Positions 1-11,232 of a DNA stretch of 11,232 nucleotides are shown piece by piece; position 1 is the stretch's first letter, and every line of letters starts with the position of its first letter. The notes under the pieces are model-generated. The model was not told the DNA's origin. It worked only from the letters and a program-made list of their open reading frames with translations, and searched no databases. The DNA is from Candidatus Micrarchaeota archaeon (GTDB lineage: Archaea > Micrarchaeota > Micrarchaeia > Norongarragalinales > SBBD01): NCBI GenBank assembly GCA_043813365.1, contig JBDRLB010000074.1, forward strand, positions 1 through 11,232, read 5' to 3'. The position numbers and the translations under genes were made by a program.

Positions 1-124
1 GGATGAGCACGCTTCCGATATTCCTGGATTTCATTATCTTTGCCGCTTCCTGTATGGTTGCATCTTCGTTGATCGCTACTAAGGAAGTCTTCATGATGTC
101 CCCTACCTTGATGCCTGTGTCCAT
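1..124 (-). CDS. CBS-domain protein, N-terminal part (runs off the window edge)
   Basis: Manual translation from ATG at 124 gives [41 protein letters not shown], which matches the CBS pattern (V.DIM...V.I..D.TI.EAA..M....IG.V.V). A TATA-like box lies about 22 nt upstream. Confidence 0.9.
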
Positions 125-145
125 GGAAGGTTTGTGCTGAAGGGG

Positions 146-155
146 ATTTAAATAT
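146..155. promoter_or_regulatory. TATA-like box (ATTTAAATAT) between divergent genes, possibly bidirectional
   Basis: Reads TTTAAATA on + (147-154) and TATTTAAAT on -. It is about 22 nt from the CBS start (124) and 29 nt from the GTG at 183, spacings typical of archaeal leaderless or short-leader transcripts. Confidence 0.55.
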
Positions 156-182
156 GTTGCGTGGAAATTATGTTTACTGCAG

Positions 183-533
183 GTGTCGAACTCACCCAAA
201 GTGGTCAGAATGCCGGAAACGCCAGAAAGGAGAGCATTGCTAGCGGAAATTGCCAGGATCAGATCCACCGTATATGGCCCAAAGCATCCCGATTATCCGC
301 ATTGGAAGGGAATCGAGGAATTCACAGCAGCCCAATTCCATATAACTTCGCCCATCCAGCTCCATAATGCACTGAATGAAAGGGCAACAAACATCATCAG
401 GGCACATATGCCCGATTCGATATTTATTAGGGATGAGGTAAAGCCCTTGAAAATTTCGGTTGCAGCCCAGAGTGAGCGTAAAAAATTCCTCGAATGGGCA
501 GAACGGGTGAAGAAGGAGTTCGGCATCCAATAG
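183..533 (+). CDS. Hypothetical protein (116 aa; alternative ATG start at 210)
   Basis: The ORF fills the gap between the CBS gene and guaA. It has protein-like composition with amphipathic helices ([30 protein letters not shown]). No family recognised. Confidence 0.65.
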
Positions 534-547
534 GAAAATCCAATAGC

Positions 548-577
548 TATTTATACCCCCTCCGCCACAAATATTTG
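548..577 (+). promoter_or_regulatory. Putative guaA promoter (TTTATA 550-555) followed by the perfect palindrome CAAATATTTG (568-577)
   Basis: A TATA-like box sits in the intergenic region, with a 10-bp perfect palindrome between it and the expected transcription start. Confidence 0.45.
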
Positions 578-579
578 CT

Positions 580-631
580 AATTCTGTTGGAATTTGGGGG
601 GGCCGATTTGTCAGAAGAATAGGCTTCCCCA
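580..631 (+). promoter_or_regulatory. Tandem stem-loops in the putative guaA 5' leader
   Basis: AATTC(580-584) pairs with GAATT(590-594). TGGGGGGGCC(595-604) pairs with GGCTTCCCCA(622-631), 10 bp including two G-U pairs, extended by ATTT/GAAT after a G.A mismatch. Confidence 0.45.
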
Positions 632-656
632 TACATTTCACAATCCGGGTAAAAAA

Positions 657-2192
657 ATGATAATCGTGCTTGATTTCGGGGGGCAATCAGTGCACCTAAT
701 TGCACGAAGGCTCAAGGACCTGGGCTTCAATGCGGAAATCCTTCCCTACAATGCTAAATTGGAGGAAATCAAAAGTCACAAGCCTGTCGGGATCATCCTT
801 TCAGGAGGGCCCGCCGCAATCAGCGGCTCCAATGCGATTTACCCGGACATGGGGATTTTCGATTTGAATCTTCCAATACTAGGCATCTGCTACGGCGAGC
901 AGCTCATTGCAACTCATTACAAGGGAAGGCTCGCTAGGCGCGGCGAGCAGAACGAATATGGGAAGGAGGAAATGGCAACCGCAAAGGACAGCGAGCTCTT
1001 CAAAGGGTTGGGGAAGGAGGAGCAGGTGTGGATGTCCCATGGGGATGCGGTGACCTTCCTGCCAAAGGGGTTCGAAGTTACAGGAAGCACGCAAAAATGC
1101 GCGGTTGCCGCTTTTGAAAGCCGCGCACGCAAACTTTATGGATTGCAATTCCATCCGGAAGTTGCGCACACGAGGAACGGCTCGAAAATGCTCCTTAATT
1201 TCGCGAAAAACATATGCAAATCAGGGAAAGATTATTCCCTTAGGGGGCTGGATAAGAAATTAATATCCGAAGTGCAGGAAGAAGCGAATAAAGGCGGCGT
1301 CCTCATTGCCGTTTCAGGAGGGGTTGATTCGCTCGTTACTGCTGCGCTGATCCATAAGGCGGTGCCTGACCAGCTTTACAGCGTATTCATAAATACGGGC
1401 CTGATGCGCGAGGGCGAAGTGGAGGAAACGGAGCTTTTCTTCAGGAAGATGGGCTTCAGGCATTTCGAAGTCGTCAATGCTGCAAAAATTTTCATCGGCA
1501 AGCTGAAGGGCGTGACTGATCCCGAACAGAAAAGGAAGATCATCGGCCATGCATTCATCGAGGAATTCGAGAAGAAGGCGAAGGAACTGGGAAGCAAAGC
1601 CAATATCAAATACCTGGCGCAGGGCACGATCTATCCCGACCGCATCGAAAGCGCGCAGGCCTCGCATGTTGCGGAGAAAATAAAAAGCCACCATAACCTT
1701 ACCCTTCCCGAAAAGATGAATTTGAAAATAATTGAGCCGCTTAAGGACCTCTACAAGGACGAAGTTAGGCAGCTAGGGGAAATGCTCGGGCTGCCGCATA
1801 AAAGGGTGTGGAGGCAGCCGTTCCCGGGCCCCGGGCTGGCAATTCGCATCGTCGGCGAAATTACGCCGGAAAGGATCGCGATTGTAAGGAAGGCGGATGC
1901 TATTTTCCGCGAGGAGATTGCCAAAGCGGGTTTAGATCAAAAAATATGGCAATATTTCGCGGCTCTGCTTCCCGTGAAGGCAGTTGGGGTAATGGCGGAT
2001 GAGCGCACCTACGAATACATCGTTTCATTGCGCGCAGTGACAAGCAAGGATGCGATGTCGGCTGATTGGGCTAAAATCCCCTACGATGTGCTGGAGAGGA
2101 TCTCCTCGAAAATCAGCAACAATGTGAGGGGAGTTAATCGCGTCCTCTACGACATTTCCCAGAAACCACCTGCAACAATAGAATACGAATAG
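657..2192 (+). CDS. guaA: GMP synthase (glutamine-hydrolysing), fused GATase + ATP-PPase, 511 aa
   Basis: N-terminus IIVLDFGGQ; oxyanion motif LSGGP; catalytic Cys (GICYG) and His/Glu (QFHPEV); PP-loop SGGVDS; QGTIYPD, KSHHN, PFPGPGLAIR; C-terminal KPPATIEYE. ATG at 657 is preferred over TTG at 594 because the homologous N-terminus begins there. Confidence 0.98.
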   Translation: MIIVLDFGGQSVHLIARRLKDLGFNAEILPYNAKLEEIKSHKPVGIILSGGPAAISGSNAIYPDMGIFDLNLPILGICYGEQLIATHYKGRLARRGEQNEYGKEEMATAKDSELFKGLGKEEQVWMSHGDAVTFLPKGFEVTGSTQKCAVAAFESRARKLYGLQFHPEVAHTRNGSKMLLNFAKNICKSGKDYSLRGLDKKLISEVQEEANKGGVLIAVSGGVDSLVTAALIHKAVPDQLYSVFINTGLMREGEVEETELFFRKMGFRHFEVVNAAKIFIGKLKGVTDPEQKRKIIGHAFIEEFEKKAKELGSKANIKYLAQGTIYPDRIESAQASHVAEKIKSHHNLTLPEKMNLKIIEPLKDLYKDEVRQLGEMLGLPHKRVWRQPFPGPGLAIRIVGEITPERIAIVRKADAIFREEIAKAGLDQKIWQYFAALLPVKAVGVMADERTYEYIVSLRAVTSKDAMSADWAKIPYDVLERISSKISNNVRGVNRVLYDISQKPPATIEYE

Positions 2193-2195
2193 ATT

Positions 2196-2726
2196 TCACT
2201 TTTTCTGCTTCGTTTTGATGTCCACGACATCGGCAAATGTGGTGCCTGTTGCGGAAGGTTTATTTCTGCTCCCCTGAAAATCCTTCGTCTCATCCGCTGT
2301 GGGCGGTTTCTCCTCCTCGATGATTTTTATCTTCAGGTAATCCTGCAGCTTCCGTGCGATTTTCAGCTCCGGCTTCAGGAGCTCGTCCTCCAGCCTTTCT
2401 ATCACGTTTTCCGAAATGAATAATTTGTTCCCCAGCTCCTGCCGGGTGAGATGGAGCGCCTCCCTCGCGCCTTTGATGATCATTCCGTATCCCTCAACCG
2501 CATAATATTCGTGGTGATAAGGAGTAGTTTTAGGAAGAAGTGGCGTTGTTGGATGAGTCGCAGCATGTTGACCCCCAAAGCCAAAATTCGGGCTCTTGGG
2601 AACAGCCGCCCTCTTTACCCGTTTCCCATAATGCATGCAATTGTCACATAGGAAAACGTCCGCTCCCTCCACAATCGCTTCATTGTAAGCCGGTTTCCCG
2701 CAGATATGGCATTGCTCCCCTTTCAT
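2196..2726 (-). CDS. mbf1: Archaeal multiprotein bridging factor 1 (Zn ribbon + HTH)
   Basis: N-terminal CHICG...IVEGADVFLCDNC..YG zinc ribbon, linker, cro-type HTH (YGMIIKGAREALHLTRQELG...I.RLE...LKP...ARKL..YLKIKI), and C-terminal TFADVV motif. ATG at 2726 is preferred over TTG at 2735. Confidence 0.92.
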   Translation of the reverse strand: MKGEQCHICGKPAYNEAIVEGADVFLCDNCMHYGKRVKRAAVPKSPNFGFGGQHAATHPTTPLLPKTTPYHHEYYAVEGYGMIIKGAREALHLTRQELGNKLFISENVIERLEDELLKPELKIARKLQDYLKIKIIEEEKPPTADETKDFQGSRNKPSATGTTFADVVDIKTKQKK

Positions 2727-2779
2727 GAATACCAACCCATTGCCAGTTAAATCAGCAGATTAATGTAAATGGTGCAAAC

Positions 2780-2787
2780 TTAATAAA
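2780..2787. promoter_or_regulatory. TATA-like box between divergent mbf1 and fen
   Basis: TTAATAAA on + (about 30 nt before the fen GTG); TTTATTAA on -. Confidence 0.4.
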
Positions 2788-2817
2788 ATTGAGCAAATTC
2801 ATCTTAGGGGGGTTATT

Positions 2818-3834
2818 GTGGGCGTACAGATCGCGGATATTGTGGAGGCAAGGAAACTTTCTTTCGAGGAGATAAACGGAAGGATCGCAATTGATGCCTA
2901 CAATACCATTTACCAATTCCTCTCCATAATCAGGCAGCCTGACGGGACTCCCTTGATGGATTCGAAGGGACGCGTGACATCGCACATCTCGGGCCTTTTC
3001 TACCGTACCTGCAGCCTGATTGAAAAGGGCATACAGCCGGTGTTCGTTTTCGATGGGAAGCCCTCTGAATTGAAGAGGAAAACGCTGGATGGGAGGAAGG
3101 AACGCAAGCAGATGGCTGCAGAAGAATTCGAGAAGGCTAAGGAGCAAGGCAAGGAGGAGGAAATGAAAATATTCGCGCAGCAAACCTCCAAATTGACGAA
3201 GGAGATGGCGGAGGAGGGCAAGCAGCTGCTTCAATTGCTCGGATTGCCCGTAATACAGGCAAAAAGCGAGGGCGAGGCGCAATGCGCATACATGTGCAAG
3301 AAGGGGCTCGTAGATGCAACCGGTTCGCAGGATTTTGATGCGCTCCTTTTCGGCACTCCGGTCTTGCTCAAGAACATGACAATTGCCGGAAGGCGGAAAC
3401 TTCCCCGAAAAAACATGTTCATCGAAATCGTCCCTGAAAGGATAGAATTGGAACCTAATTTGCAACGGTTGGGGATTTCCCAAAAAAAGCTCATCTGGAT
3501 CGGCATACTTGCAGGAACTGATTTCAACAAGGGGATTTACGGCATTGGCGCGAAGAAGGCGCTGAAATTGGTGAAGGAGCACGAGAGTTTTGAGGAGATT
3601 GCAACAACACTCAAGCAGGAAATAGATTACAAGGCGGTTGAGGAATTGTTTTTCCATCCGGATGTTGCGGATGTGGAGGAGGAGCAGATCGTTTTCGGGA
3701 AGCCCGACCGCGAAGGGCTGATCGAATTCATGATGGACAGGAATTTCACCATTGAGAGGGTGCAAGCTGCGCTCAACCGCGCATTCAAGGAACCTTTCGG
3801 GACAAAACAGCAAAATTTACAGAAGTGGTTTTGA
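2818..3834 (+). CDS. fen: Flap endonuclease 1 (archaeal FEN-1), 338 aa
   Basis: MGV N-terminus; AIDAYNTIYQFLSIIRQPDGTPLMD; VFVFDG; EGEAQ; SQDFDALLFG; GTDFN.GI.GIG.KKAL (H3TH); C-terminal PIP box QQNLQKWF. Confidence 0.98.
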   Translation: MGVQIADIVEARKLSFEEINGRIAIDAYNTIYQFLSIIRQPDGTPLMDSKGRVTSHISGLFYRTCSLIEKGIQPVFVFDGKPSELKRKTLDGRKERKQMAAEEFEKAKEQGKEEEMKIFAQQTSKLTKEMAEEGKQLLQLLGLPVIQAKSEGEAQCAYMCKKGLVDATGSQDFDALLFGTPVLLKNMTIAGRRKLPRKNMFIEIVPERIELEPNLQRLGISQKKLIWIGILAGTDFNKGIYGIGAKKALKLVKEHESFEEIATTLKQEIDYKAVEELFFHPDVADVEEEQIVFGKPDREGLIEFMMDRNFTIERVQAALNRAFKEPFGTKQQNLQKWF

Positions 3835-3953
3835 ATGCCTTGCCCCTTTCTTTTGGAAAAAGAAAGGTGCGAGGGCACCGCGCCAAAGAAAATGAAATAG
3901 AACATTTCAGCACGAAGCAGCAGAATTTGCAGAAGTGGTTTTGAACGCCTTGC
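3790..3953 (+). repeat. Imperfect 54-bp direct repeat of the fen 3' end (3790-3843 and 3900-3953)
   Basis: GAACCTTTCGGGACAAAACAGCAAAATTTACAGAAGTGGTTTTGAATGCCTTGC vs GAACATTTCAGCACGAAGCAGCAGAATTTGCAGAAGTGGTTTTGAACGCCTTGC: 46/54 identical, period 110 nt. Confidence 0.95.
3845..3867. other. Perfect 10-bp hairpin with 3-nt GGA loop between the two repeat copies
   Basis: CCTTTCTTTT-GGA-AAAAGAAAGG. An overlapping second hairpin is GGTGC-GAGG-GCACC (3866-3879). Confidence 0.8.
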
Positions 3954-4014
3954 TGCCGAATCGGCCTAATTGCGGAAGTTAAACGATTGTCGATGTTTCG
4001 CGGGAAGAATACGA

Positions 4015-4047
4015 TATATAAATATTTCTCCGCTTACTGTTTTATAG
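4015..4047 (+). promoter_or_regulatory. TATA-like boxes upstream of the small ORF
   Basis: TATATAAATA (4015-4024) and TTTTTATA (about 4040-4047) in an AT-rich intergenic stretch. Confidence 0.45.
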
Positions 4048-4099
4048 TTTTTTCGAGTGCAATTTTTTTCCGTGAGCATGTCCTATACCTGTGGTTAGT

Positions 4100-4207
4100 A
4101 TGGAGCTGAAGCAGATGCAGAAGATGAAGAAGAAGGATCTCTCCGTTATCGAAGATTCGCCCGACGAGCTCTGGGATGAGGAATCAGTTGAGAAGGAAGA
4201 CGACTAA
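4100..4207 (+). CDS. Small hypothetical protein, 35 aa (basic N-half, acidic C-half)
   Basis: Manual translation gives MELKQMQKMKKKDLSVIEDSPDELWDEESVEKEDD*. GTGGT SD-like sequence at 4091-4095, upstream TATA-like boxes, and coding-like G/C-ending codons. Below the ORF-track cutoff. Confidence 0.6.
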   Translation: MELKQMQKMKKKDLSVIEDSPDELWDEESVEKEDD

Positions 4208-4278
4208 TTCAAGCAGTTCCATATGGGCGGCATATTTAAAAGGGCTAGCGGTGCATTTTCAATCCGATTCATTTTTTC

Positions 4279-6213
4279 TCAAATCCTGATCAGTTCCATC
4301 TTCTCCGGATCATGCGGTTCCTCCTTCTTCATTGCCTTCACTTCGGGCTTGGGCTGCTCCTCGTTTTTCTGGATTTTCTTCATGAACTCCTCCGCGTCTA
4401 TATCCTTCGGATCCCTGAAAAGCCGTGATTTCCTGTGCGTGCGCCTGTAGTAATAGATGGCAAACCCAAAAAGCAAAGCAGCCGCTCCCGCAGCCGCATA
4501 CCAGACAAAATCTATTTTCACATCCTCGGGGGTCTTCATTGCCGCATTGATCCTTTCGGAAGCCGTTGAAAGCAGGATGAACGCCTGCGCAGTATCTCCT
4601 TTCGTGTCCGCTGCTTCGGCATCAAGGATCAGCTTTGCAATGTCAGTCCGGTCCTTTTCGGAAATTTTGGGACCTGCCCCAAGAAGGAGCTGCCTCATCC
4701 GTTCCGCCTCCGACGCTACGGTGATTGTTGGGGAGGGGCTCGCATGAAAATCCGGAGATGCCTGTGCTGAGGGGGTATTTTCAATTACATCTGCCGGGAT
4801 AATTGACGTGGATGGATTCCCTTCTGCCGGCTGTTCGGTTGGGGAAGGTGATGCCTCCGGCACAGCTCCCACTCCCAATATTATGGGCACATGGGGCGAT
4901 TCTGCCGCTGCAACTCCGGGGGATGATGAATTATATATGACAAAAAACTCATATATGCCCGCGCTTCCGTTGGCTAGCACGTTCCAGCTTGTTTCGCATG
5001 TGTCGCCATCCTTCATCTCATTGCAATTTGCAGGGTTCCTGTCAGTTGTGTAAAAAGGCGAGCCCGAACCAACTGCCAGAATGGATTTTTTTGGTCCGGT
5101 TACGGGCGGCAAAGTTGATGCACTTGCTGTCGGGGCCGGCTCCTGACCAAAACTCGGAGTGGGCGAAATCACAGGCGTTGCGCTCGGGAAAATCCCCTCC
5201 TCCTCACCATTCCTGGTTTCATAGGTTGCAAAAATATTCTTTGCCAAATCCGAAAAAATGATGCCGGGCCCGAAATCCGCCGAATCCTGCGGCAAGCCTG
5301 GCGATGATGCTGTTTGCTGAACCCTGCCCGCATCGTGGTACACATCCGTGCTGCTTCCGGATGCGCCCAAAGCAAGCCAATAGTATGCATCCGGCTCGAG
5401 CTTTTCGTTGCTGAAATCGAATGTGACAAGGGTGGACCCGATTGTGAATGGCGTGCTGTAAATTGTGAGGCTGTCATTTAGCTTCTTGCCGGGCTGCCCA
5501 TTGTCATTCATGTAAATTGCCGCCCCGTATGAAGCTCCTGCAATCACGAAGAGGTATGCGCTGATGCTCTTGAGCTTGCCTTCAACTGGGCCCATTCTGT
5601 ACTTTGTTGCAATTTTATTGCCATCCTGCAGTTTGGGGTAGGAATTGCATATCCCGCCGATAATGCAGCTCATGTTCTCATTGCCAAAAGCCGGGTCCAA
5701 CGCAGCTGAAACCATGCCGCATTCCCCTCCCGAACACGATAATTTGGCGGAGTACGCAAATGCGCCGCCATTCTGGATTGTGGTGCCATCCTCGGGTGCG
5801 ATGTGCCCTGCTTGAAGGGTTCCCCATGGCACCGTCCAATTGATCATTTTTGTTGATGAGGTGCCAGTGGAATCATCACAGCTTACCGTAAGCAGGAATT
5901 CGCCGGAATCCTCAATCTGGCTGTTCAAGCCAAGTGCGTAATAGCCTCCGTCAGGCAATGCACTCCCTGCCGCATATCCTTCGGAGTCCGGGACATTTAT
6001 CAGCAAAAACGAAACGGAATCCACCCCGTCCGGATCATCACATTTCGCGTGGACGCCAGTAAGCGTATCGCCGAAAACAAGTGTTTCGCAGTTTTCCCAT
6101 GAGCCACCCTTCTCGCATTTGACATCCGAAATCGCGGGTTCGCCCTGCGCAGCGATGAATGCAGGCAGAATCGCAAATACAATAAGCGCTATCACTAGCT
6201 TCTTGCTTTCCAC
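4279..6213 (-). CDS. Large secreted cell-surface protein with C-terminal transmembrane anchor (about 644 aa; start GTG 6213 or 6222)
   Basis: Signal peptide (KKLVIALIVFAILPAFIAAQ), Cys-paired beta-rich domains, Pro/Ser/Thr-rich linkers, a helical segment, a TM helix (FVWYAAAGAAALLFGFAIYYY-RR), and a charged cytoplasmic tail. A TATA box at 6252-6244 argues against the upstream TTG at 6288. Confidence 0.85.
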   Translation of the reverse strand: MESKKLVIALIVFAILPAFIAAQGEPAISDVKCEKGGSWENCETLVFGDTLTGVHAKCDDPDGVDSVSFLLINVPDSEGYAAGSALPDGGYYALGLNSQIEDSGEFLLTVSCDDSTGTSSTKMINWTVPWGTLQAGHIAPEDGTTIQNGGAFAYSAKLSCSGGECGMVSAALDPAFGNENMSCIIGGICNSYPKLQDGNKIATKYRMGPVEGKLKSISAYLFVIAGASYGAAIYMNDNGQPGKKLNDSLTIYSTPFTIGSTLVTFDFSNEKLEPDAYYWLALGASGSSTDVYHDAGRVQQTASSPGLPQDSADFGPGIIFSDLAKNIFATYETRNGEEEGIFPSATPVISPTPSFGQEPAPTASASTLPPVTGPKKSILAVGSGSPFYTTDRNPANCNEMKDGDTCETSWNVLANGSAGIYEFFVIYNSSSPGVAAAESPHVPIILGVGAVPEASPSPTEQPAEGNPSTSIIPADVIENTPSAQASPDFHASPSPTITVASEAERMRQLLLGAGPKISEKDRTDIAKLILDAEAADTKGDTAQAFILLSTASERINAAMKTPEDVKIDFVWYAAAGAAALLFGFAIYYYRRTHRKSRLFRDPKDIDAEEFMKKIQKNEEQPKPEVKAMKKEEPHDPEKMELIRI

Positions 6214-6243
6214 ATAACCCACGGAATCAGTAATCAAAGGTGG

Positions 6244-6252
6244 TATATATAA
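6244..6252 (-). promoter_or_regulatory. TATA box for the surface-protein gene
   Basis: TTATATATA on the - strand, about 22 nt above GTG 6222. Confidence 0.6.
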
Positions 6253-6297
6253 GTTGGGGAGGATTTTTTTCGAGGCACGTTCCTCCAAATTAATAGA

Positions 6298-7527
6298 TCA
6301 GTAAATCACGAATTTGGAGCACATTTCCTTTACCTCCTCCCTTACCTTTTGCTTCATTGCCGCATCCGTCCTGTTCCTCAATGTTTTATCTATCAATCTC
6401 GCGGTCTCCTTCATTTCAGACTCCTTCATCCCCCTGCTGGTAATTGCGGGCGTGCCAATGCGAATTCCGCTCGGGTCAAGCGGCTGCCTTTTATCAAAAG
6501 GGATCATGTTCTTGTTGCAGTAAATGCCGACTTCATCCAGAACGGTTTCAGCCTCCTTTCCGGTAATTCCCTCCTTCCAGACATCAACCAGCATTAAGTG
6601 GTTGTCCGTTCCATTTGTAACCAGCCTCCATCCGTAGCCCATCAAATCTTCCGCTAGCACTTTCGCATTCTTCACAATCTGCTTCGCATATTCCTTGAAA
6701 TTCGGCTCCAATGCCTCCTTGAATGCGACTGCTTTTGCCGCGTTCACATGGTCGTGCGGCCCGCCCTGCAAACCCGGGAAAACAGCTTTATCTATTTGCT
6801 TAGCAAACTGCTCCTTGCACATGATGATTGCGCCCCTCGGGCCCCTCAATGTTTTATGGGCTGTTGTTGAGACGACATCGAAGAACGGCACCGGATTCTC
6901 ATGTATGCCTGCTGCGCATAAACCGGCAATGTGGGCGATATCTGCAAAGGAATAAGCGCCGACCTCATCCGCGATTTCCTTGAATTTCTTGAAATCGAGC
7001 GTTCTCGGGTAGGCTGAAAAGCCGGCCAAAACCATTTTTGGCTTTTCCGCAATTGCCAGCCTCCTTACCTCATCATAATCAATCAATTCCGTTTCCGGAT
7101 CCAACCCATAGGGGATGATTTTGTAAAACCTGCCCGAAAAGTTCAACGGATGGCCGTGCGTAAGATGCCCGCCCATGGAAAGGTTCATTCCAAGCACTTT
7201 ATCCCCGATTTCGAGCAATGCGTAATAAACTGCGAAATTCGCCGGCGAGCCGGAATAAGGCTGGACATTCACATGCTGCGCCCCGAACAATTGCTTCGCC
7301 CTTGCAACAGCCAGATCCTCCATCTGGTCGATGTATTCGTTCCCCCCATAGTACCTCTTGTGGGGGACGCCTTCGGAATACTTGTTTGTCATTATGGAGC
7401 CAAGCGCTTCCAGCACCGGCTTGCTTACGTAATTCTCTGAAGGAATCAGCTCCAGCCCCTCCATCTGCCTCTTCTTCTCCAGCTCGATGATCTTCGCTAT
7501 TTCCGGATCGTATTTTTCAAGGAACAT
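6298..7527 (-). CDS. glyA: Serine hydroxymethyltransferase, bacterial-type
   Basis: [51 protein letters not shown]-lysine motif [41 protein letters not shown]. Confidence 0.98.
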
Positions 7528-7610
7528 GGATTCCCCACCCTAATGAATTAGATTGCCCACAATTGAAACAAACGGGATGAAGATATTAAATAGTTTGGGT
7601 AAGAACTCCC

Positions 7611-7943
7611 TCATTCCTGCGGGGGACGGCTCCCGCACTTGAATTTGTCCTCCGAAGCCGGGTCGTCCCATGCGGTTCCGTTGAGCCCTCCGTTCGTCAT
7701 GGTGCATTTTGGATCGAGTCCATAATCTATCGCATTACGCAAGGTTGTCGTATCCGGTTTCCAGGTGCCATTATCGAAATAGCATACTCCGACTGTTGCT
7801 AATTTCGCAAAGCATTTCGCCTGCTCCGCCTGGTTGACGCTGACCTGGTTAGTCCCCCTAAGCATGAAGAAGGCAACCAGTGCAATCATCAGTATGCCTC
7901 CCATTAGTAGAATATACTCAAATGCGCCCTGTCCCTTCCGCAT
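7611..7943 (-). CDS. Class III signal peptide / type IV pilin-like protein A (110 aa)
   Basis: MRKG/QGAFEYILL plus a hydrophobic helix fits the [KR][GA]-Q-x-x-x-E motif of EppA-type euryarchaeal pilins (Class_IIIsignal/DUF361). Four Cys in the globular part. Confidence 0.9.
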   Translation of the reverse strand: MRKGQGAFEYILLMGGILMIALVAFFMLRGTNQVSVNQAEQAKCFAKLATVGVCYFDNGTWKPDTTTLRNAIDYGLDPKCTMTNGGLNGTAWDDPASEDKFKCGSRPPQE

Positions 7944-7974
7944 AATATCAACTTGAAGGAGTACACTCGTCAGG

Positions 7975-7982
7975 TATTTAAA
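7975..7982 (-). promoter_or_regulatory. TATA box of pilin A
   Basis: TTTAAATA on -, about 32 nt above ATG 7943. Confidence 0.6.
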
Positions 7983-8014
7983 ATTACGCCTGCCCCGCTG
8001 GCGCTAAAGGCCTG

Positions 8015-8060
8015 AAGAAAAAAGAATCAGAAAAAGAAAATAAAAAAAGAAAAAGGGAAA
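8015..8060 (-). terminator. Oligo-T archaeal terminator after pilin B
   Basis: About 45 nt of multiple T4-T7 runs on the - strand immediately after the stop at 8061. Confidence 0.75.
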
Positions 8061-8402
8061 TTATGCCGGTTGCATTCCGCAGTTGAATGTGGCAACTTCA
8101 GGCGGACCAGCGACATACGAGGCAAACCAGCCAGTTCCTACTAATCCACCGCCGGGTGCAAAGCAGCTAAGTGGCACTCCATAATCCGTTGCAATTAAAC
8201 CAGCATCAGTATCCCAGCCTCCAGTTGGCGTGTAACAAGCGGATACTTTTGCGATTGCAGCCAAGCATTGCGCCTGCGAAATCTGTTGTTTCGGGGCGGA
8301 AGTCAAAGTCCCCCTGAGAATTATGATCGCCAGAACCACAATAAGCAGTACTCCGGCCAAAAGCAGAATGTACTCAAACGCACCTTGTCCTCTCTTTCCC
8401 AT
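8061..8402 (-). CDS. Class III signal peptide / type IV pilin-like protein B (113 aa), probable major pilin
   Basis: MGKRG/QGAFEYILLLAGVLLIVVLAIIILRG; four Cys aligned with pilin A; SD GGTGA, strong promoter and own terminator. Confidence 0.92.
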   Translation of the reverse strand: MGKRGQGAFEYILLLAGVLLIVVLAIIILRGTLTSAPKQQISQAQCLAAIAKVSACYTPTGGWDTDAGLIATDYGVPLSCFAPGGGLVGTGWFASYVAGPPEVATFNCGMQPA

Positions 8403-8453
8403 TATTTATCACCTTCAAGGATAAACTTGAACGAATAAACTAATCACACATGG

Positions 8454-8468
8454 TATATAAAGCTTTTC
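8454..8468 (-). promoter_or_regulatory. BRE-TATA promoter of pilin B
   Basis: GAAAAGC-TTTATATA on -, a near-consensus archaeal BRE plus TATA box. Confidence 0.75.
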
Positions 8469-8475
8469 CTGAAGA

Positions 8476-8652
8476 TCAGATATAACCGGAAGTGTTCGTC
8501 GCATTCAGGTAATCGTTGTAGCTCTGGTTCACCTGCTCCTTCCCGCCTTCAAGCGCGCTGGTTTTCAGCATCATGTATGCAATCGCAACTAGCATTATTG
8601 CAGCCCCTACAAGCAGGATATATTCGAAAGTGCCCTGCGCCTTTTCATCCAT
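8476..8652 (-). CDS. Short class III signal peptide / pilin-like protein C (58 aa)
   Basis: MDEKA/QGTFEYILLVGAAIMLVAIAYMMLK. The start is moved to ATG 8652 because TTTATTAA (8682-8675) sits 23 nt upstream, consistent with a leaderless transcript. Confidence 0.88.
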   Translation of the reverse strand: MDEKAQGTFEYILLVGAAIMLVAIAYMMLKTSALEGGKEQVNQSYNDYLNATNTSGYI

Positions 8653-8809
8653 GAGGAGGTATAAGCAGCCCGGGTTAATAAATTTTGCCACGATTGCAGT
8701 GGGGAATCCGCGAATAAACGGCCAACAGGTGCTTTTATTGTTACCACGCTTCCGAGATAACGCTTTTTAATTTCATTGCAGTTATGGTTTAGCCAGAAAG
8801 GTGATGCTC

Positions 8810-9076
8810 ATGCCCAAAAAGGAAACCTATGCGGTCTTTTCAAGTTCAGGTAACGGTGCGTTCGAGATTACGGACGACAGCGTCGTATTGATGGGGATCA
8901 AGAACCTCGCCATCAAGAAGAATTACGTCATGGAGCTTGCGAAGCTGGGCGATTTGCCCCTAAATAAAGTAAGCGTGAGCATGAAATACTTCGACATGTT
9001 CGGGAACACGGAGAATCTCGAATTCGCGATGCGCGAGGCGGATTTCCGCGCATTGAAAAATTCGCTCGGGAAATAA
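8810..9076 (+). CDS. Small hypothetical protein (88 aa), possibly PH-like fold
   Basis: SD GGTGA (8800-8804) is 5 nt before ATG 8810. The pattern of short beta-strands ending in one amphipathic helix (EADFRALKNSL) suggests the fold, but that call is inference. Confidence 0.8.
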   Translation: MPKKETYAVFSSSGNGAFEITDDSVVLMGIKNLAIKKNYVMELAKLGDLPLNKVSVSMKYFDMFGNTENLEFAMREADFRALKNSLGK

Positions 9077-9148
9077 GCCGATTGCAGCATTAATCAAAAC
9101 CAAACCTATTTATTTTGCTGAATTTCAAAGGGAGGTCGGGGATTCTTT

Positions 9149-11086
9149 ATGAGAGCAATTTATCTTTTGAGTTTATTCCTAACCTTGATGGCGGTGCCCG
9201 CTCTTGCAACCACTTCGCTCGAGGTGCCGGCAGTTGATGCGGAAGGAGTGGGCATACTCAGCACGGTTTCCGTCACCGCAACCAGCGGAACTGGTGACAT
9301 TTTCGTCTCCATTGTGCCCTTGACCGGCATTGACACGCAGCATTCTGAGAAAACAGCAGTTGAAGTTGCCGCTTCCGAACTTGATGTGGATCCCAATAAG
9401 TTCAACGTGATGTTCAAAATCGAATCCACTGCGGAAGTTGTGGATGGGACTTCGGCCGGCGCTGCGATGGCGCTTTTGACATATTCAGAATTTTCCGGCA
9501 AAAGGATGAGGCGGGACATGACTTTAACCGGCTCCATTGACCTTGATGGCCATATAGGCAAAATAGGGGGCGTGTTCGAGAAGGCAAAAGCTGTTGCGGA
9601 GAGCACCCTTCGCGACTACAAATTATTCCTCATTCCACGAGGGCAGCGAATACAGAGCGGGGTCGATATCGCGAAATATGCAAAGGAGAAATGGAAGCTG
9701 CAGGTTGTGGAGGTAGACACTATTGAGGACGTGATAAATTACGCATTCGACACAGCGGAAGGATCCGAAGTGCAGGTGATTGAAAAGGCAATCCAGCCTC
9801 TGCTGCTGATCCCTCTAAAGGCAAGCACGGAGGCGCAAGCGTTCAGGCAGATTTCCCAGAATGAAATCCAGGAAACAAGGAAGAGGCTCCGAGAGTCCGA
9901 TGCTTCAATTGAAGTGAAGGCGCAGGTGGAGGAGATGCTGAACCTCTCCGAAAGTCTGATAGCGAAAAATTATTTATATTCCGCAGCAAATACGGCATTC
10001 ATTGCGACCATCACCCTAGATGAACTCTCGTTCTTGAACAATAGCAAGGCGGAATTCCGGGAAAGGCTCAAGGAATTGAAGGCTAGCGCTGATGGGCTGG
10101 AATTCGCGAATCAGACGGAAAACAATTTCGAATGGGTCGTGGGTGCGAAGCTTCGGTACCATTGGGCGAAGGGAAAAATCGATTCCGCAGAGGACAAGGT
10201 CGCAGTTGGGAACTACATGGGCGCATCCGGCGATCTTGCAGTAGCTGCAAGCTGGCTCCGCGCGGCATACAGGATGAATGCGATCGCATCCGGAAAGGCA
10301 TTTGGGAAGGAGATGAAGGACATTTACTACAGGGATTTTGCCTCGCAAATAATCGAGGAGGCAAAGCAGCTCCAAACCGATGGGCTGTTGGATGAGGAGG
10401 CGCAGGACCATTACAAAACTGCAGTAAGCATTTTCAGCGATGCGGATTACCTCGCAGCCGCATTTGATGCAACCTTTGCAACCGCGTATTCCGAGGCGCT
10501 GGACGATACGGAAGACAAGACTTTTGGCGATGTTGTCAATGATTTGTGCAAAACGGAAACTTTCGAGATTACTTGCAGCGTCTTCAATGACAAGGAATTC
10601 GGCTCATTGTGGGCGGAGCTTTACCATGCACACGCACTCTACAGCTTCCAGGAGAGCAACCGTTCCCATGATGGCGCATCGCTCCTGAACGGCGTGAAAT
10701 TGCTGAAACTGTCCGAAGGATTTGCGCAACGCAGGAAGGAGGCGATTGAAATCCTGAAGAACCCACCGGTTGTTGTTGAGGGATCGGGCACCAAGGCGCC
10801 TTCGGCGGCGCCAACAAATGAGCTGAAGGTGGAGGTTGTTGCGGTTCAGGAGGATTCGATGAGGAATTTCATCGTTTTCGGGATAGTTGGGCTTGTAATA
10901 CTGCTGGTTGTTTACGGAATGCTAATCGGGAGGAAACCGCCCGCAATCGCATCCGTTGAAGGAAGGGGCAGGATGGAGCGTGCGGAGCAGCTTCTGCTAG
11001 AGGGAAGGATCAGCGAGCGCAGCTTCGAGTATTTCAAGCAAAAGTACGGGAAGGGAAAAGCGATCCGGAAAAAAGGGAAAAAATAA
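9149..11086 (+). CDS. Secreted/membrane-anchored Lon-like serine protease (peptidase S16, archaeal COG1750-like), 645 aa
   Basis: Signal peptide; VPAVD..G.G; VDGTSAG (Ser102); TGSI..DG.IG.IGGV.EK (Lys145, the same 43-residue Ser-Lys spacing as Lon); FLIP.GQ; VVEV.TIED. No AAA+ Walker motifs. Long helical region and a C-terminal TM helix. SD GGAGGT at 9131-9136. Confidence 0.9.
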   Translation: MRAIYLLSLFLTLMAVPALATTSLEVPAVDAEGVGILSTVSVTATSGTGDIFVSIVPLTGIDTQHSEKTAVEVAASELDVDPNKFNVMFKIESTAEVVDGTSAGAAMALLTYSEFSGKRMRRDMTLTGSIDLDGHIGKIGGVFEKAKAVAESTLRDYKLFLIPRGQRIQSGVDIAKYAKEKWKLQVVEVDTIEDVINYAFDTAEGSEVQVIEKAIQPLLLIPLKASTEAQAFRQISQNEIQETRKRLRESDASIEVKAQVEEMLNLSESLIAKNYLYSAANTAFIATITLDELSFLNNSKAEFRERLKELKASADGLEFANQTENNFEWVVGAKLRYHWAKGKIDSAEDKVAVGNYMGASGDLAVAASWLRAAYRMNAIASGKAFGKEMKDIYYRDFASQIIEEAKQLQTDGLLDEEAQDHYKTAVSIFSDADYLAAAFDATFATAYSEALDDTEDKTFGDVVNDLCKTETFEITCSVFNDKEFGSLWAELYHAHALYSFQESNRSHDGASLLNGVKLLKLSEGFAQRRKEAIEILKNPPVVVEGSGTKAPSAAPTNELKVEVVAVQEDSMRNFIVFGIVGLVILLVVYGMLIGRKPPAIASVEGRGRMERAEQLLLEGRISERSFEYFKQKYGKGKAIRKKGKK

Positions 11087-11098
11087 GATAGCAAAACG

Positions 11099-11232
11099 CT
11101 ACCTGTCCTCGAATGCCTGTGAATTCACAACATCCTCGCCCTGCAAAATGGCATTCACGATTATGTTGATCGATGAGTTGAGCGTCGCGTTTAGTGCAAA
11201 AACCTCATAACTATTCTCAATAGGAGCCGCAC
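11099..11232 (-). CDS. 3' end of a hypothetical (probably secreted) protein entering from the right edge
   Basis: Open frame ...AAPIENSYEVFALNATLNSSINIIVNAILQGEDVVNSQAFEDR* ends at TAG 11101-11099, convergent with the protease gene. It has two N-x-S/T sequons. Confidence 0.6.
   Translation of the reverse strand, partial: AAPIENSYEVFALNATLNSSINIIVNAILQGEDVVNSQAFEDR

Follow-up and report, generated by a model that had tools for sequence, protein, structure and literature searches.

Integrative elements duplicate their attachment (att) sites at the 3' ends of transfer RNA (tRNA) genes and protein genes, and in the Thermoproteales tRNA introns are reported to transpose, near-identical introns being found in different tRNA genes and at non-canonical positions. 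In fungal mitochondria, mobile open reading frames (ORFs) are associated with duplication of the C-terminus of the host gene (Allomyces atp6; Glomus atp6, atp9, cox2 and nad3), and the inserted and native C-termini differ mostly at silent sites (PMC3630166). We find a comparable arrangement at the 3' end of fen, the gene for a FEN1 flap endonuclease, in a metagenome-assembled genome (MAG) of the DPANN lineage Micrarchaeota (1.34 Mb in 78 contigs, 88.6% complete, 3% contamination; GCA_043813365.1). The window analysed is the whole 11,232-nucleotide (nt) stretch at positions 1 to 11,232 of the forward strand of contig JBDRLB010000074.1. Here the last codons of fen occur twice, at the end of the gene and again downstream, and the second tail is with high probability the footprint of a tiny mobile hairpin element together with a dead copy of the gene end. 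As in the fungal cases, the working C-terminus lies by the insert, a second copy follows downstream and the differences between the two are largely synonymous; the fungal insert, however, is about 1 kb long and encodes its own endonuclease, whereas the inserts here are 50-90 nt long, non-coding and related to tRNA introns, with no endonuclease identified.

The fen ORF (2818..3834, + strand) encodes 338 amino acids (aa) of the FEN1/XPG family, with Pfam matches to XPG_N (2.8e-19) and XPG_I (2.4e-24), and ends in QQNLQKWF. This tail resembles the PCNA-interacting protein (PIP) box, which has the consensus Q-x-x-L-x-x-aromatic-aromatic, and all six relatives with a fen tail read keep it as Q-x-x-L-x-K-W-F/L. 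The working gene end, and the true end of the FEN1 ORF, is copy 1 (3790..3843, + strand): the final 14 codons, which encode the peptide EPFGTKQQNLQKWF, followed by the TGA stop and 9 nt of 3' flank. Copy 2 (3900..3953, + strand) encodes EHFSTKQQNLQKWF up to a TGA at 3942-3944, closes like copy 1 with TKQQNLQKWF and a stop, and extends over the same 9 nt of flank; relative to fen it is in the +2 frame, and it represents a displaced, probably untranslated tail. Direct comparison of the two copies, which repeat with a period of 110 nt, agrees with the coordinates, peptides and eight mismatches in 54 nt given by the initial annotation (46/54 nt identical), and of the 9 nt past the stop to which that annotation extended the similarity, 8 agree. 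The flank-to-flank local alignment reaches a score of 57, whereas 200 shuffles yield 23 at most, and the copies share no exact match longer than 16 nt.

Four of the differences fall within the 30 nt that encode TKQQNLQKWF, and a recount agrees that all four are synonymous third-position changes, each from A in copy 1 to G in copy 2. Silent changes make up just 12 of the 90 possible single changes in this stretch, and four random changes would all be silent with P ~3e-4; counted as A>G changes alone, the differences occupy exactly the 4 silent sites among 14 possible ones (1 in 1001). The two codon differences further upstream in copy 2 are non-synonymous (P>H and G>S), at positions that read EPFG in copy 1 and in all four congeners whose fen tail was read. 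FEN1 orthologues in five congeners share 70-78% aa identity, and when the tails are compared with those of relatives, fen copies 1 and 2 are each other's nearest relatives.

Between the copies lies a 56-nt sequence (3837..3892, + strand), left as anonymous spacer in the initial annotation, that we find to be a single arm of a dispersed, non-coding repeat family, hereafter family 1; the final 7 nt of copy 1 overlap its start. The sequence matches 12 other places in the same genome, and a profile built from 11 copies gives 23 hits at E<1e-4 in this MAG, the fen copy itself scoring E=7e-16 (nhmmer). Members fold into two hairpins of 13 base pairs in total, 7 of them with compensatory double changes among 26 copies from 20 genomes. 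Family 1 is found in 30 of the 67 genomes of the order, with identity to the fen copy of up to 96% in other taxonomic families whose FEN1 is only 52-60% identical, and Rfam holds no family matching either this element or the second hairpin family introduced below. A short 6-bp hairpin, evident on reading the sequence and in the minimum-free-energy fold, spans the junction of insert and copy 2 (3893..3909, + strand). A simple tandem duplication can be rejected, as the sequence after copy 2 is not the element but the native fen 3' flank (3954..4100, + strand), which is syntenic with congeners. None of the four congener fen loci read (L011-L014) carries the element or a tail duplication. The native flank also contains short intergenic motifs (3954-4100) common to L011, L012 and L014, conserved despite protein identities of 70-78%, which may serve the small ORF downstream as promoter or leader.

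The fen locus is one of nine in this MAG that have the order tail, hairpin element, tail. They emerged from a scan in which the final 12 residues of every ORF of at least 90 aa were sought again within 400 nt; it returned ten rows, of which nine were kept and one was dropped since no stop follows its second copy. An unbiased self-BLAST for local direct repeats recovers seven of the nine and otherwise only the internal repeats of repeat proteins. Besides FEN1 (contig C74, the window), the affected genes encode a SpoU-type methylase (C47, period 119 nt), deoxyhypusine synthase (C53, 152 nt), D-aminoacyl-tRNA deacylase (C57, 139 nt), ribosomal stalk protein P1 (C71, 142 nt), an HTH/S-layer-like protein (C72, 107 nt), TatD (C76, 88 nt), an unidentified 177-aa protein (C63, 100 nt) and the N-terminal half of RpoB (C43, 108 nt). 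The SpoU pair is flanked by a family-1 arm and the other seven non-fen loci by a G-rich hairpin, family 2, whose fold has 13 pairs, 7 of them with compensatory changes among 24 copies. Divergence between tail copies reaches 32% at these other loci, and it is again concentrated at silent sites: the two SpoU tails are identical at 18/18 residues though 14/18 codons differ; the SpoU tails of five congeners vary in sequence and in length alike. Across the nine pairs taken together, we count 45 silent differences at 102 silent sites and 16 replacement differences at 366 replacement sites. With boundary codons counted, the ratio of replacement to silent divergence (pN/pS) is 0.10, where simple decay of one copy after duplication in place would give ~0.5 or more. 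This low ratio indicates that selection on the peptide shaped the sequences from which both copies stem, a proposal first made for fen in the initial annotation that holds there and, on the pooled figures, more generally.

We find no support for a still-translated second PIP module, which had been put forward as one option for copy 2: the copy is in the +2 frame, read-through of the fen TGA stops after 21 codons, and the predicted fold contains no bulge-helix-bulge pairing that joins the copies. Frames and stops likewise rule out a frameshift, read-through or ribosome bypass reaching copy 2. We also regard it as extremely unlikely that copy 2 is translated alone, as a free PIP-box peptide that would start at an in-frame GTG or TTG within the element and modulate PCNA. 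The copy-2 frame is open from 3837, with TTG at 3840 and GTG at 3867, and an in-frame ATG stands directly before copy 2 at the family-2 loci C53, C71 and C76, but chance alone would give an open frame of 21 codons, no in-frame start exists at C72, most of the duplicated tails are not known peptide motifs, and the fen copy 2 is changed at conserved positions. A dead, fossil tail is the most likely identity of copy 2.

The same architecture is found in relatives. Family 2 occurs in 9/9 genomes of the taxonomic family and in 11/67 genomes of the order, source MAG included, and its copies in relatives are 80-94% identical to those of the source MAG. Among 29 family-2 loci fetched, two were the source MAG's own and 27 were assessed, with the threshold for a flank repeat set at the shuffle maximum plus 6. 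Repeats beyond this threshold flank the element at 16/27 loci, in nine related genomes. They are 17-99 nt long; several are 100% identical (17, 18, 21, 24, 25 and 36 nt), and others have diverged nearly only at silent sites, as at L253, where 61 nt contain a single amino-acid change. An ORF of at least 80 aa on the element strand ends in or just past the upstream copy at 10/16 of these loci, the remainder having short antisense ORFs only (two loci, both tRNA-linked) or no such ORF (four loci). The genes affected in relatives are once more core genes, among them those for ribosomal proteins S4e and S6e, a beta-CASP nuclease, an A-type ATPase subunit, the PolD subunit DP2 and Hsp20, and at L244 and L247 the duplications lie upstream of genes. 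The downstream copy begins 0-5 nt past a sharp right end of the element, and 4-36 variable nt separate the upstream copy from the conserved core. In all, the arrangement recurs at ~25 loci in 10 genomes, always with 50-90 nt inside and including independent assemblies, some of them of 7-8 contigs, and between genomes with proteins 52-78% identical the members of either element family are 85-96% identical. Tail and element may also form arrays of two to three units behind one gene, as seen for a T2SSE ATPase at L246 (G003:C73 ~31392-31700), for PolD DP2 at L249 (G001:C63) and for deoxyhypusine synthase in the source MAG (C53:11129-11450); at L246, three copies of one tail surround two to three elements, and the units share their left boundary.

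Both families also reside inside tRNA genes. ARAGORN finds 10 tRNA genes in this MAG and Rfam 19, several of them 100-185 nt long, and we attribute the ARAGORN shortfall to the many tRNA genes that carry introns made of the family-1 element. An Rfam tRNA match has the arm inside at L004, long tRNA matches lie on C28 and C31, and interrupted genes occur, for example, at C31:1363-1590, C62:22916-23075, C47:15925-16110, C70:10970-11098 and C28:3071-3255. Introns in the anticodon loop (C70, C28) consist of a single family-1 arm, and those in the T-loop of an arm, a small hairpin and an inverted arm; the T-loop introns sit between short repeats of the palindromic T-loop core. In silico removal of the arm-bearing segment, with the cut at position 53-58 in the T-loop, restores tRNA-Asn(GTT), tRNA-Arg(TCT) and tRNA-Val(GAC), and judged from these reconstructed sequences family 1 forms the T-loop introns of at least three tRNA genes in this MAG. 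The T-loop of tRNA-Asn(GTT) holds the reverse complement of family 2 in genome G002 (L225, C6 ~160420-160473) and family-1 arms at the same position in the source MAG (C31:1363-1590); within tRNA introns, family 2 is seen as the reverse complement only and family 1 in sense. The 3' parts of tRNAs, from the T-loop to the 3' end, are themselves duplicated around elements, which ARAGORN confirms at L283 and L286 (family 1) and L233 (family 2), and a flank repeat was flagged at 11/29 family-1 loci. In the C73:2868-3347 region the MAG encodes a 392-aa splicing endonuclease with two catalytic-domain hits.

These data bear on the idea of a splice-neutral intron, by which the unspliced fen mRNA would use copy 1 and the spliced mRNA copy 2, with both copies under selection, an explanation that we consider improbable. 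It would account for the low pN/pS, the element family does serve as tRNA introns, the 392-aa endonuclease with its two catalytic domains resembles the three-unit ARMAN-2 enzyme, and SpoU copy 2 starts 4-5 nt past the element end which in tRNA introns adjoins the 3' exon. However, the predicted folds of the fen and SpoU loci lack bulge-helix-bulge pairing at the boundaries, a single minimum-free-energy prediction for 3775-3965 at fen giving the element's own hairpins only; at fen there is one arm only, the partner arm of the tRNA-intron form being absent; the many recent, identical pairs need no selection; and some duplications, such as those at L244 and L247, are situated upstream of genes.

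Population data, in the form of assembled contigs of public DNA runs (Logan), provide a view of fen alleles. One contig (X1 record 4, a groundwater run; 295 nt, 2x depth) extends from fen position 3567 through copy 1 into the element at 3861, and has copy-2 states at 3801, 3804, 3807, 3813 and 3819, agrees with copy 1 at 3794 and 3799, and otherwise departs from the window at one position at most over its 295 nt. Five changes within 19 nt of an otherwise identical gene are, to judge from their clustering, a patch of recombination or conversion and not scattered mutation, and the X1 haplotype appears to point to patch-wise recombination. The initial annotation had listed an allele-swap relic among its options, and with copy-2 states present inside a working tail this stands as a live sub-explanation. 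At the equivalents of 3794 and 3799, copy 2 has states found in neither MAG copy 1 nor the X1 variant. No Logan contig covers 3862-3960, with runs X2, X3 and X5 yielding short or unrelated pieces only, and a look among sequencing runs for the sequence turned up no RNA run that contains it.

We also weighed an assembly chimera, in which two strains were joined via the repeated element, and find it scarcely credible. The MAG is fragmented into 78 contigs with 3% contamination, the element is multicopy, contigs C57 and C63 look like a second related strain, and no contig in other runs spans both fen copies. Yet the copy-2 states at the equivalents of 3794 and 3799 match neither known allele, the longest shared exact match of 16 nt is too short for a join in a k-mer graph, and the same architecture, up to 32% diverged, is found at eight other loci here and in independent assemblies. 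As regards the two contigs themselves, C57 (2.7 kb) and C63 (5.0 kb) share 65-80% nt identity with parts of C20 and C19, which makes a second, related strain in the bin their probable source; on C20, the deacylase gene lacks both the element and the duplication.

The explanation that we favour, and to which we give an even chance of being right as a whole, is that a hairpin element of ~56 nt sits directly behind the fen stop codon with a duplicated tail around it, copy 2 being an untranslated leftover. After the event, each side of the element would have borne the last 45 coding nt of fen and 9 nt of its flank, with copy 1 serving as the working PIP-box tail and copy 2 persisting as the remnant of a once-working allele. 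The element would be non-autonomous and copied in by host recombination or replication, through template switching or homology-assisted illegitimate recombination, each insertion duplicating 17-99 nt of flank with a ragged left end and a sharp right end. Both copies would descend from working fen alleles, which would explain why the divergence is silent only, and one would later have been overwritten, wholly or patch-wise, by homologous recombination with a diverged allele. In our reading, then, the second tail is neither the scar of a lost, fen-specific element nor a second PIP module. For the route, duplication in place followed by allelic recombination is our leading candidate, held at a little under an even chance. 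In-place duplication is favoured by the many identical pairs, by the pair at C53, where the tails are identical over 99/99 nt and the elements behind each copy are only ~70% alike, and by an identity of 7-11 nt between the native fen 3' flank and the junction of an arm-bearing tRNA T-loop.

Several observations weigh against this account. A neutral copy 2 would show more non-synonymous decay than is seen, and the silent-only divergence of older pairs means that recombination with diverged alleles must outpace point mutation, for which the basis is one contig at 2x depth. In the Logan contigs we saw no read or independent contig that holds both fen copies, and an element-free fen allele of the same species was not found, the best identity being 56% in metagenome_contigs and 58% in genome_contigs. 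Family 2 is co-oriented with the gene in 17 cases (10 in relatives, 7 here) against 0-2 in the opposite sense, which a strand-neutral DNA mechanism without selection on orientation does not predict; selection against endonuclease-cleavable orientations in mRNA is one possibility. Finally, the variable nt on the left side at L229, L237 and L239 supply a different stop or C-terminus, for which an imported donor tail is the better fit. No directional mutation bias between copies is evident across the loci.

Such an import, in which a fen tail, a short flank and the element, all from a donor of a closely related lineage, integrated together by homology, would make copy 1 foreign and copy 2 the displaced native end. 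It would be akin to Campbell-type integration, or to the homing of mobile endonuclease ORFs in fungal mitochondria. We regard it as rather unlikely, though it is the chief alternative. It accounts for differences confined to silent sites with no extra assumption, for in-gene ends after copy 1 that are unlike the displaced end after copy 2 (L229, L237, L239), for the stalk-protein locus C71, where ~45 nt of non-coding 3' flank are also duplicated and more diverged, with indels, as between orthologues, and for the arrays of two to three units with a common left boundary at L246. The identity of 85-96% for both families across genomes whose proteins are 52-78% identical is in keeping with import, and the mitochondrial C-terminal duplications (PMC3630166) offer a known analogue. 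Nevertheless, many pairs are 100% identical over 17-99 nt, the C53 tails are identical while their flanking elements differ by ~30%, the fen copies are nearest to each other with no donor lineage sampled, and no candidate endonuclease or recombinase was found. At RpoB, the displaced copy is if anything the closer to two congeners (29 and 26 of 33, versus 24 and 23 of 33 for the in-gene copy), a weak fit to a displaced native end. A separate feature of RpoB in relatives is that the match to its N-terminal half is split by ~1.5 kb within one open frame of 995-1025 aa in both genomes of genus g3 (G007:C12 13234-15144 and G009:C95 6835-8745), which may reflect an intein or other in-frame insertion.

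No integrase, transposase or reverse transcriptase is encoded among the 83 ORFs flanking the 27 family-2 loci in relatives, and PF00589 has one hit in the whole MAG, on C63 at the contig end, away from the fen contig. RVT_1 is found in 0/10 genomes of the taxonomic family, though at completeness of 68-97% this leaves its absence unproven. A transposase with ends matching either family was not found, and the single Y1_Tnp of the MAG has unrelated flanking hairpins; this lone IS200-like Y1 transposase gene lies at C8:1-600 with GC-rich hairpins of its own. Neither element nor tail was matched in viral_contigs, scanned with three exact patterns, or in phage and plasmid sequences, searched by blastn. 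Nor were dispersed units of tail plus element found at non-homologous sites, the cross-hits being element to element and tRNA to tRNA, plus two contigs that are diverged homologues of others. Three further candidates were set aside: a reverse-transcription route, with no RVT_1 in the 10 genomes; mobilisation of the kind known for repetitive extragenic palindromic (REP) sequences and their REP-associated tyrosine transposases (RAYTs), with the sole Y1 transposase bearing unrelated hairpin ends; and mutagenesis like that of diversity-generating retroelements, suggested by the A-to-G pattern, as the changes are silent, their direction is wrong and no reverse transcriptase was found.

These results speak directly to the first option of the initial annotation, the scar of a classical integrase-borne plasmid or virus at the fen 3' end, here deleted to 56 nt, which we judge very improbable. 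Direct repeats that restore a gene end are a hallmark of att sites and are present at fen (46/54 nt), and around these elements tRNA genes, too, are duplicated in their 3' part, from the T-loop onwards to the 3' end. Such duplicated parts resemble att sites located in T-loops, as in Ms6. Integration of mobile elements has also been proposed as a route to tRNA disruption (PMC3293823). Even so, the 56-nt remainder is itself a member of a multicopy family, ~25 loci in 10 genomes have only 50-90 nt inside, integrases are lacking among the flanking ORFs and element or tail among viral, phage and plasmid sequences, and no single attachment core is shared by the nine unrelated genes in this genome and the others in relatives. 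The att-scar idea is right in spirit, in that its logic of a mobile insert that brings a duplicate of, or a replacement for, the gene end is retained, yet the element is not lost but present as the 56 nt between the copies, is tiny, multicopy and related to tRNA introns, is not specific to fen, with nine genes hit, and is not linked to an integrase.

Elsewhere in the window, a 669-aa ORF without Pfam match lies directly downstream of the fen region (4279-6288, - strand), and three small neighbouring ORFs (7611-7943, 8061-8402 and 8476-8691, - strand) have class III, archaeal pilin-type signal peptides. Two of these three have a segment of ~110 nt in common, with 70% identity (7851-7960 versus 8307-8421).

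If the favoured reading, a hairpin element behind the fen stop with a duplicated tail, holds, it would mean that ultra-compact DPANN genomes tolerate an active class of minute mobile elements without coding capacity, since every insertion brings along or generates a spare gene end. The displaced copies would then be dated fossils of earlier alleles, and so a handle on recombination versus mutation in uncultured archaea. On a practical level, duplicated tails of this kind can mislead gene callers or pass for att sites or assembly errors. The identity of element and tRNA intron ties intergenic hairpin repeats to intron gain, two subjects usually treated apart, and makes these loci concrete candidate intermediates for the arrival of tRNA introns; a link to intron gain is possible. 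A stronger version, which we think quite unlikely, is that the tail-element-tail units are the primary products of a mobility, independent of reverse transcriptase, of endonuclease-processed archaeal introns. The same ~50-nt modules would colonise T-loops and anticodon loops of tRNAs, where they are spliced, and the 3' ends of mRNAs, where the duplicated exon would be harmless or splice-neutral. If true, these loci would be intermediates of archaeal intron arrival caught in the act, possibly with mRNA splicing at DPANN housekeeping genes. The arrival of archaeal tRNA introns is described as an open question in a 2026 Asgard preprint, and in the literature searched on archaeal tRNA introns and hairpin repeats we found no description of an element that is shared with tRNA introns and associated with duplicated gene tails.

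Set against known systems, the loci have in common with att duplications the direct repeats over a gene 3' end, the restored gene end and, for tRNAs, a repeat from the T-loop to the 3' end, and differ in having no integrase, no cargo, no single att core and repeats of 17-99 nt at unrelated genes. With MITEs (miniature inverted-repeat transposable elements) and REP sequences they share that the elements are small, non-coding, multicopy, hairpin-forming and non-autonomous and lie between genes at gene ends. Here, however, the flank duplications are long and variable (54 nt at fen) and not short and fixed, the left end is ragged, no transposase matches, and both families also lie inside tRNA genes as introns. 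As regards the terminal inverted repeats of MITEs, the full tRNA-intron form runs from arm through hairpin to inverted arm, and the fen copy is a single arm. Archaeal bulge-helix-bulge introns are defined by a removal that restores the mature RNA, which is what we find for the tRNA members; the fen copy lies after a stop codon. In ARMAN-2, the splicing endonuclease has three units and broad specificity, according to PMC3239211. The resemblance to Thermoproteales introns lies in near-identical sequences in different tRNA genes at non-canonical positions and in a broad-specificity endonuclease in the lineage; unlike those introns, the sequences described here also stand behind the stop codons of protein genes, between duplicated tails.

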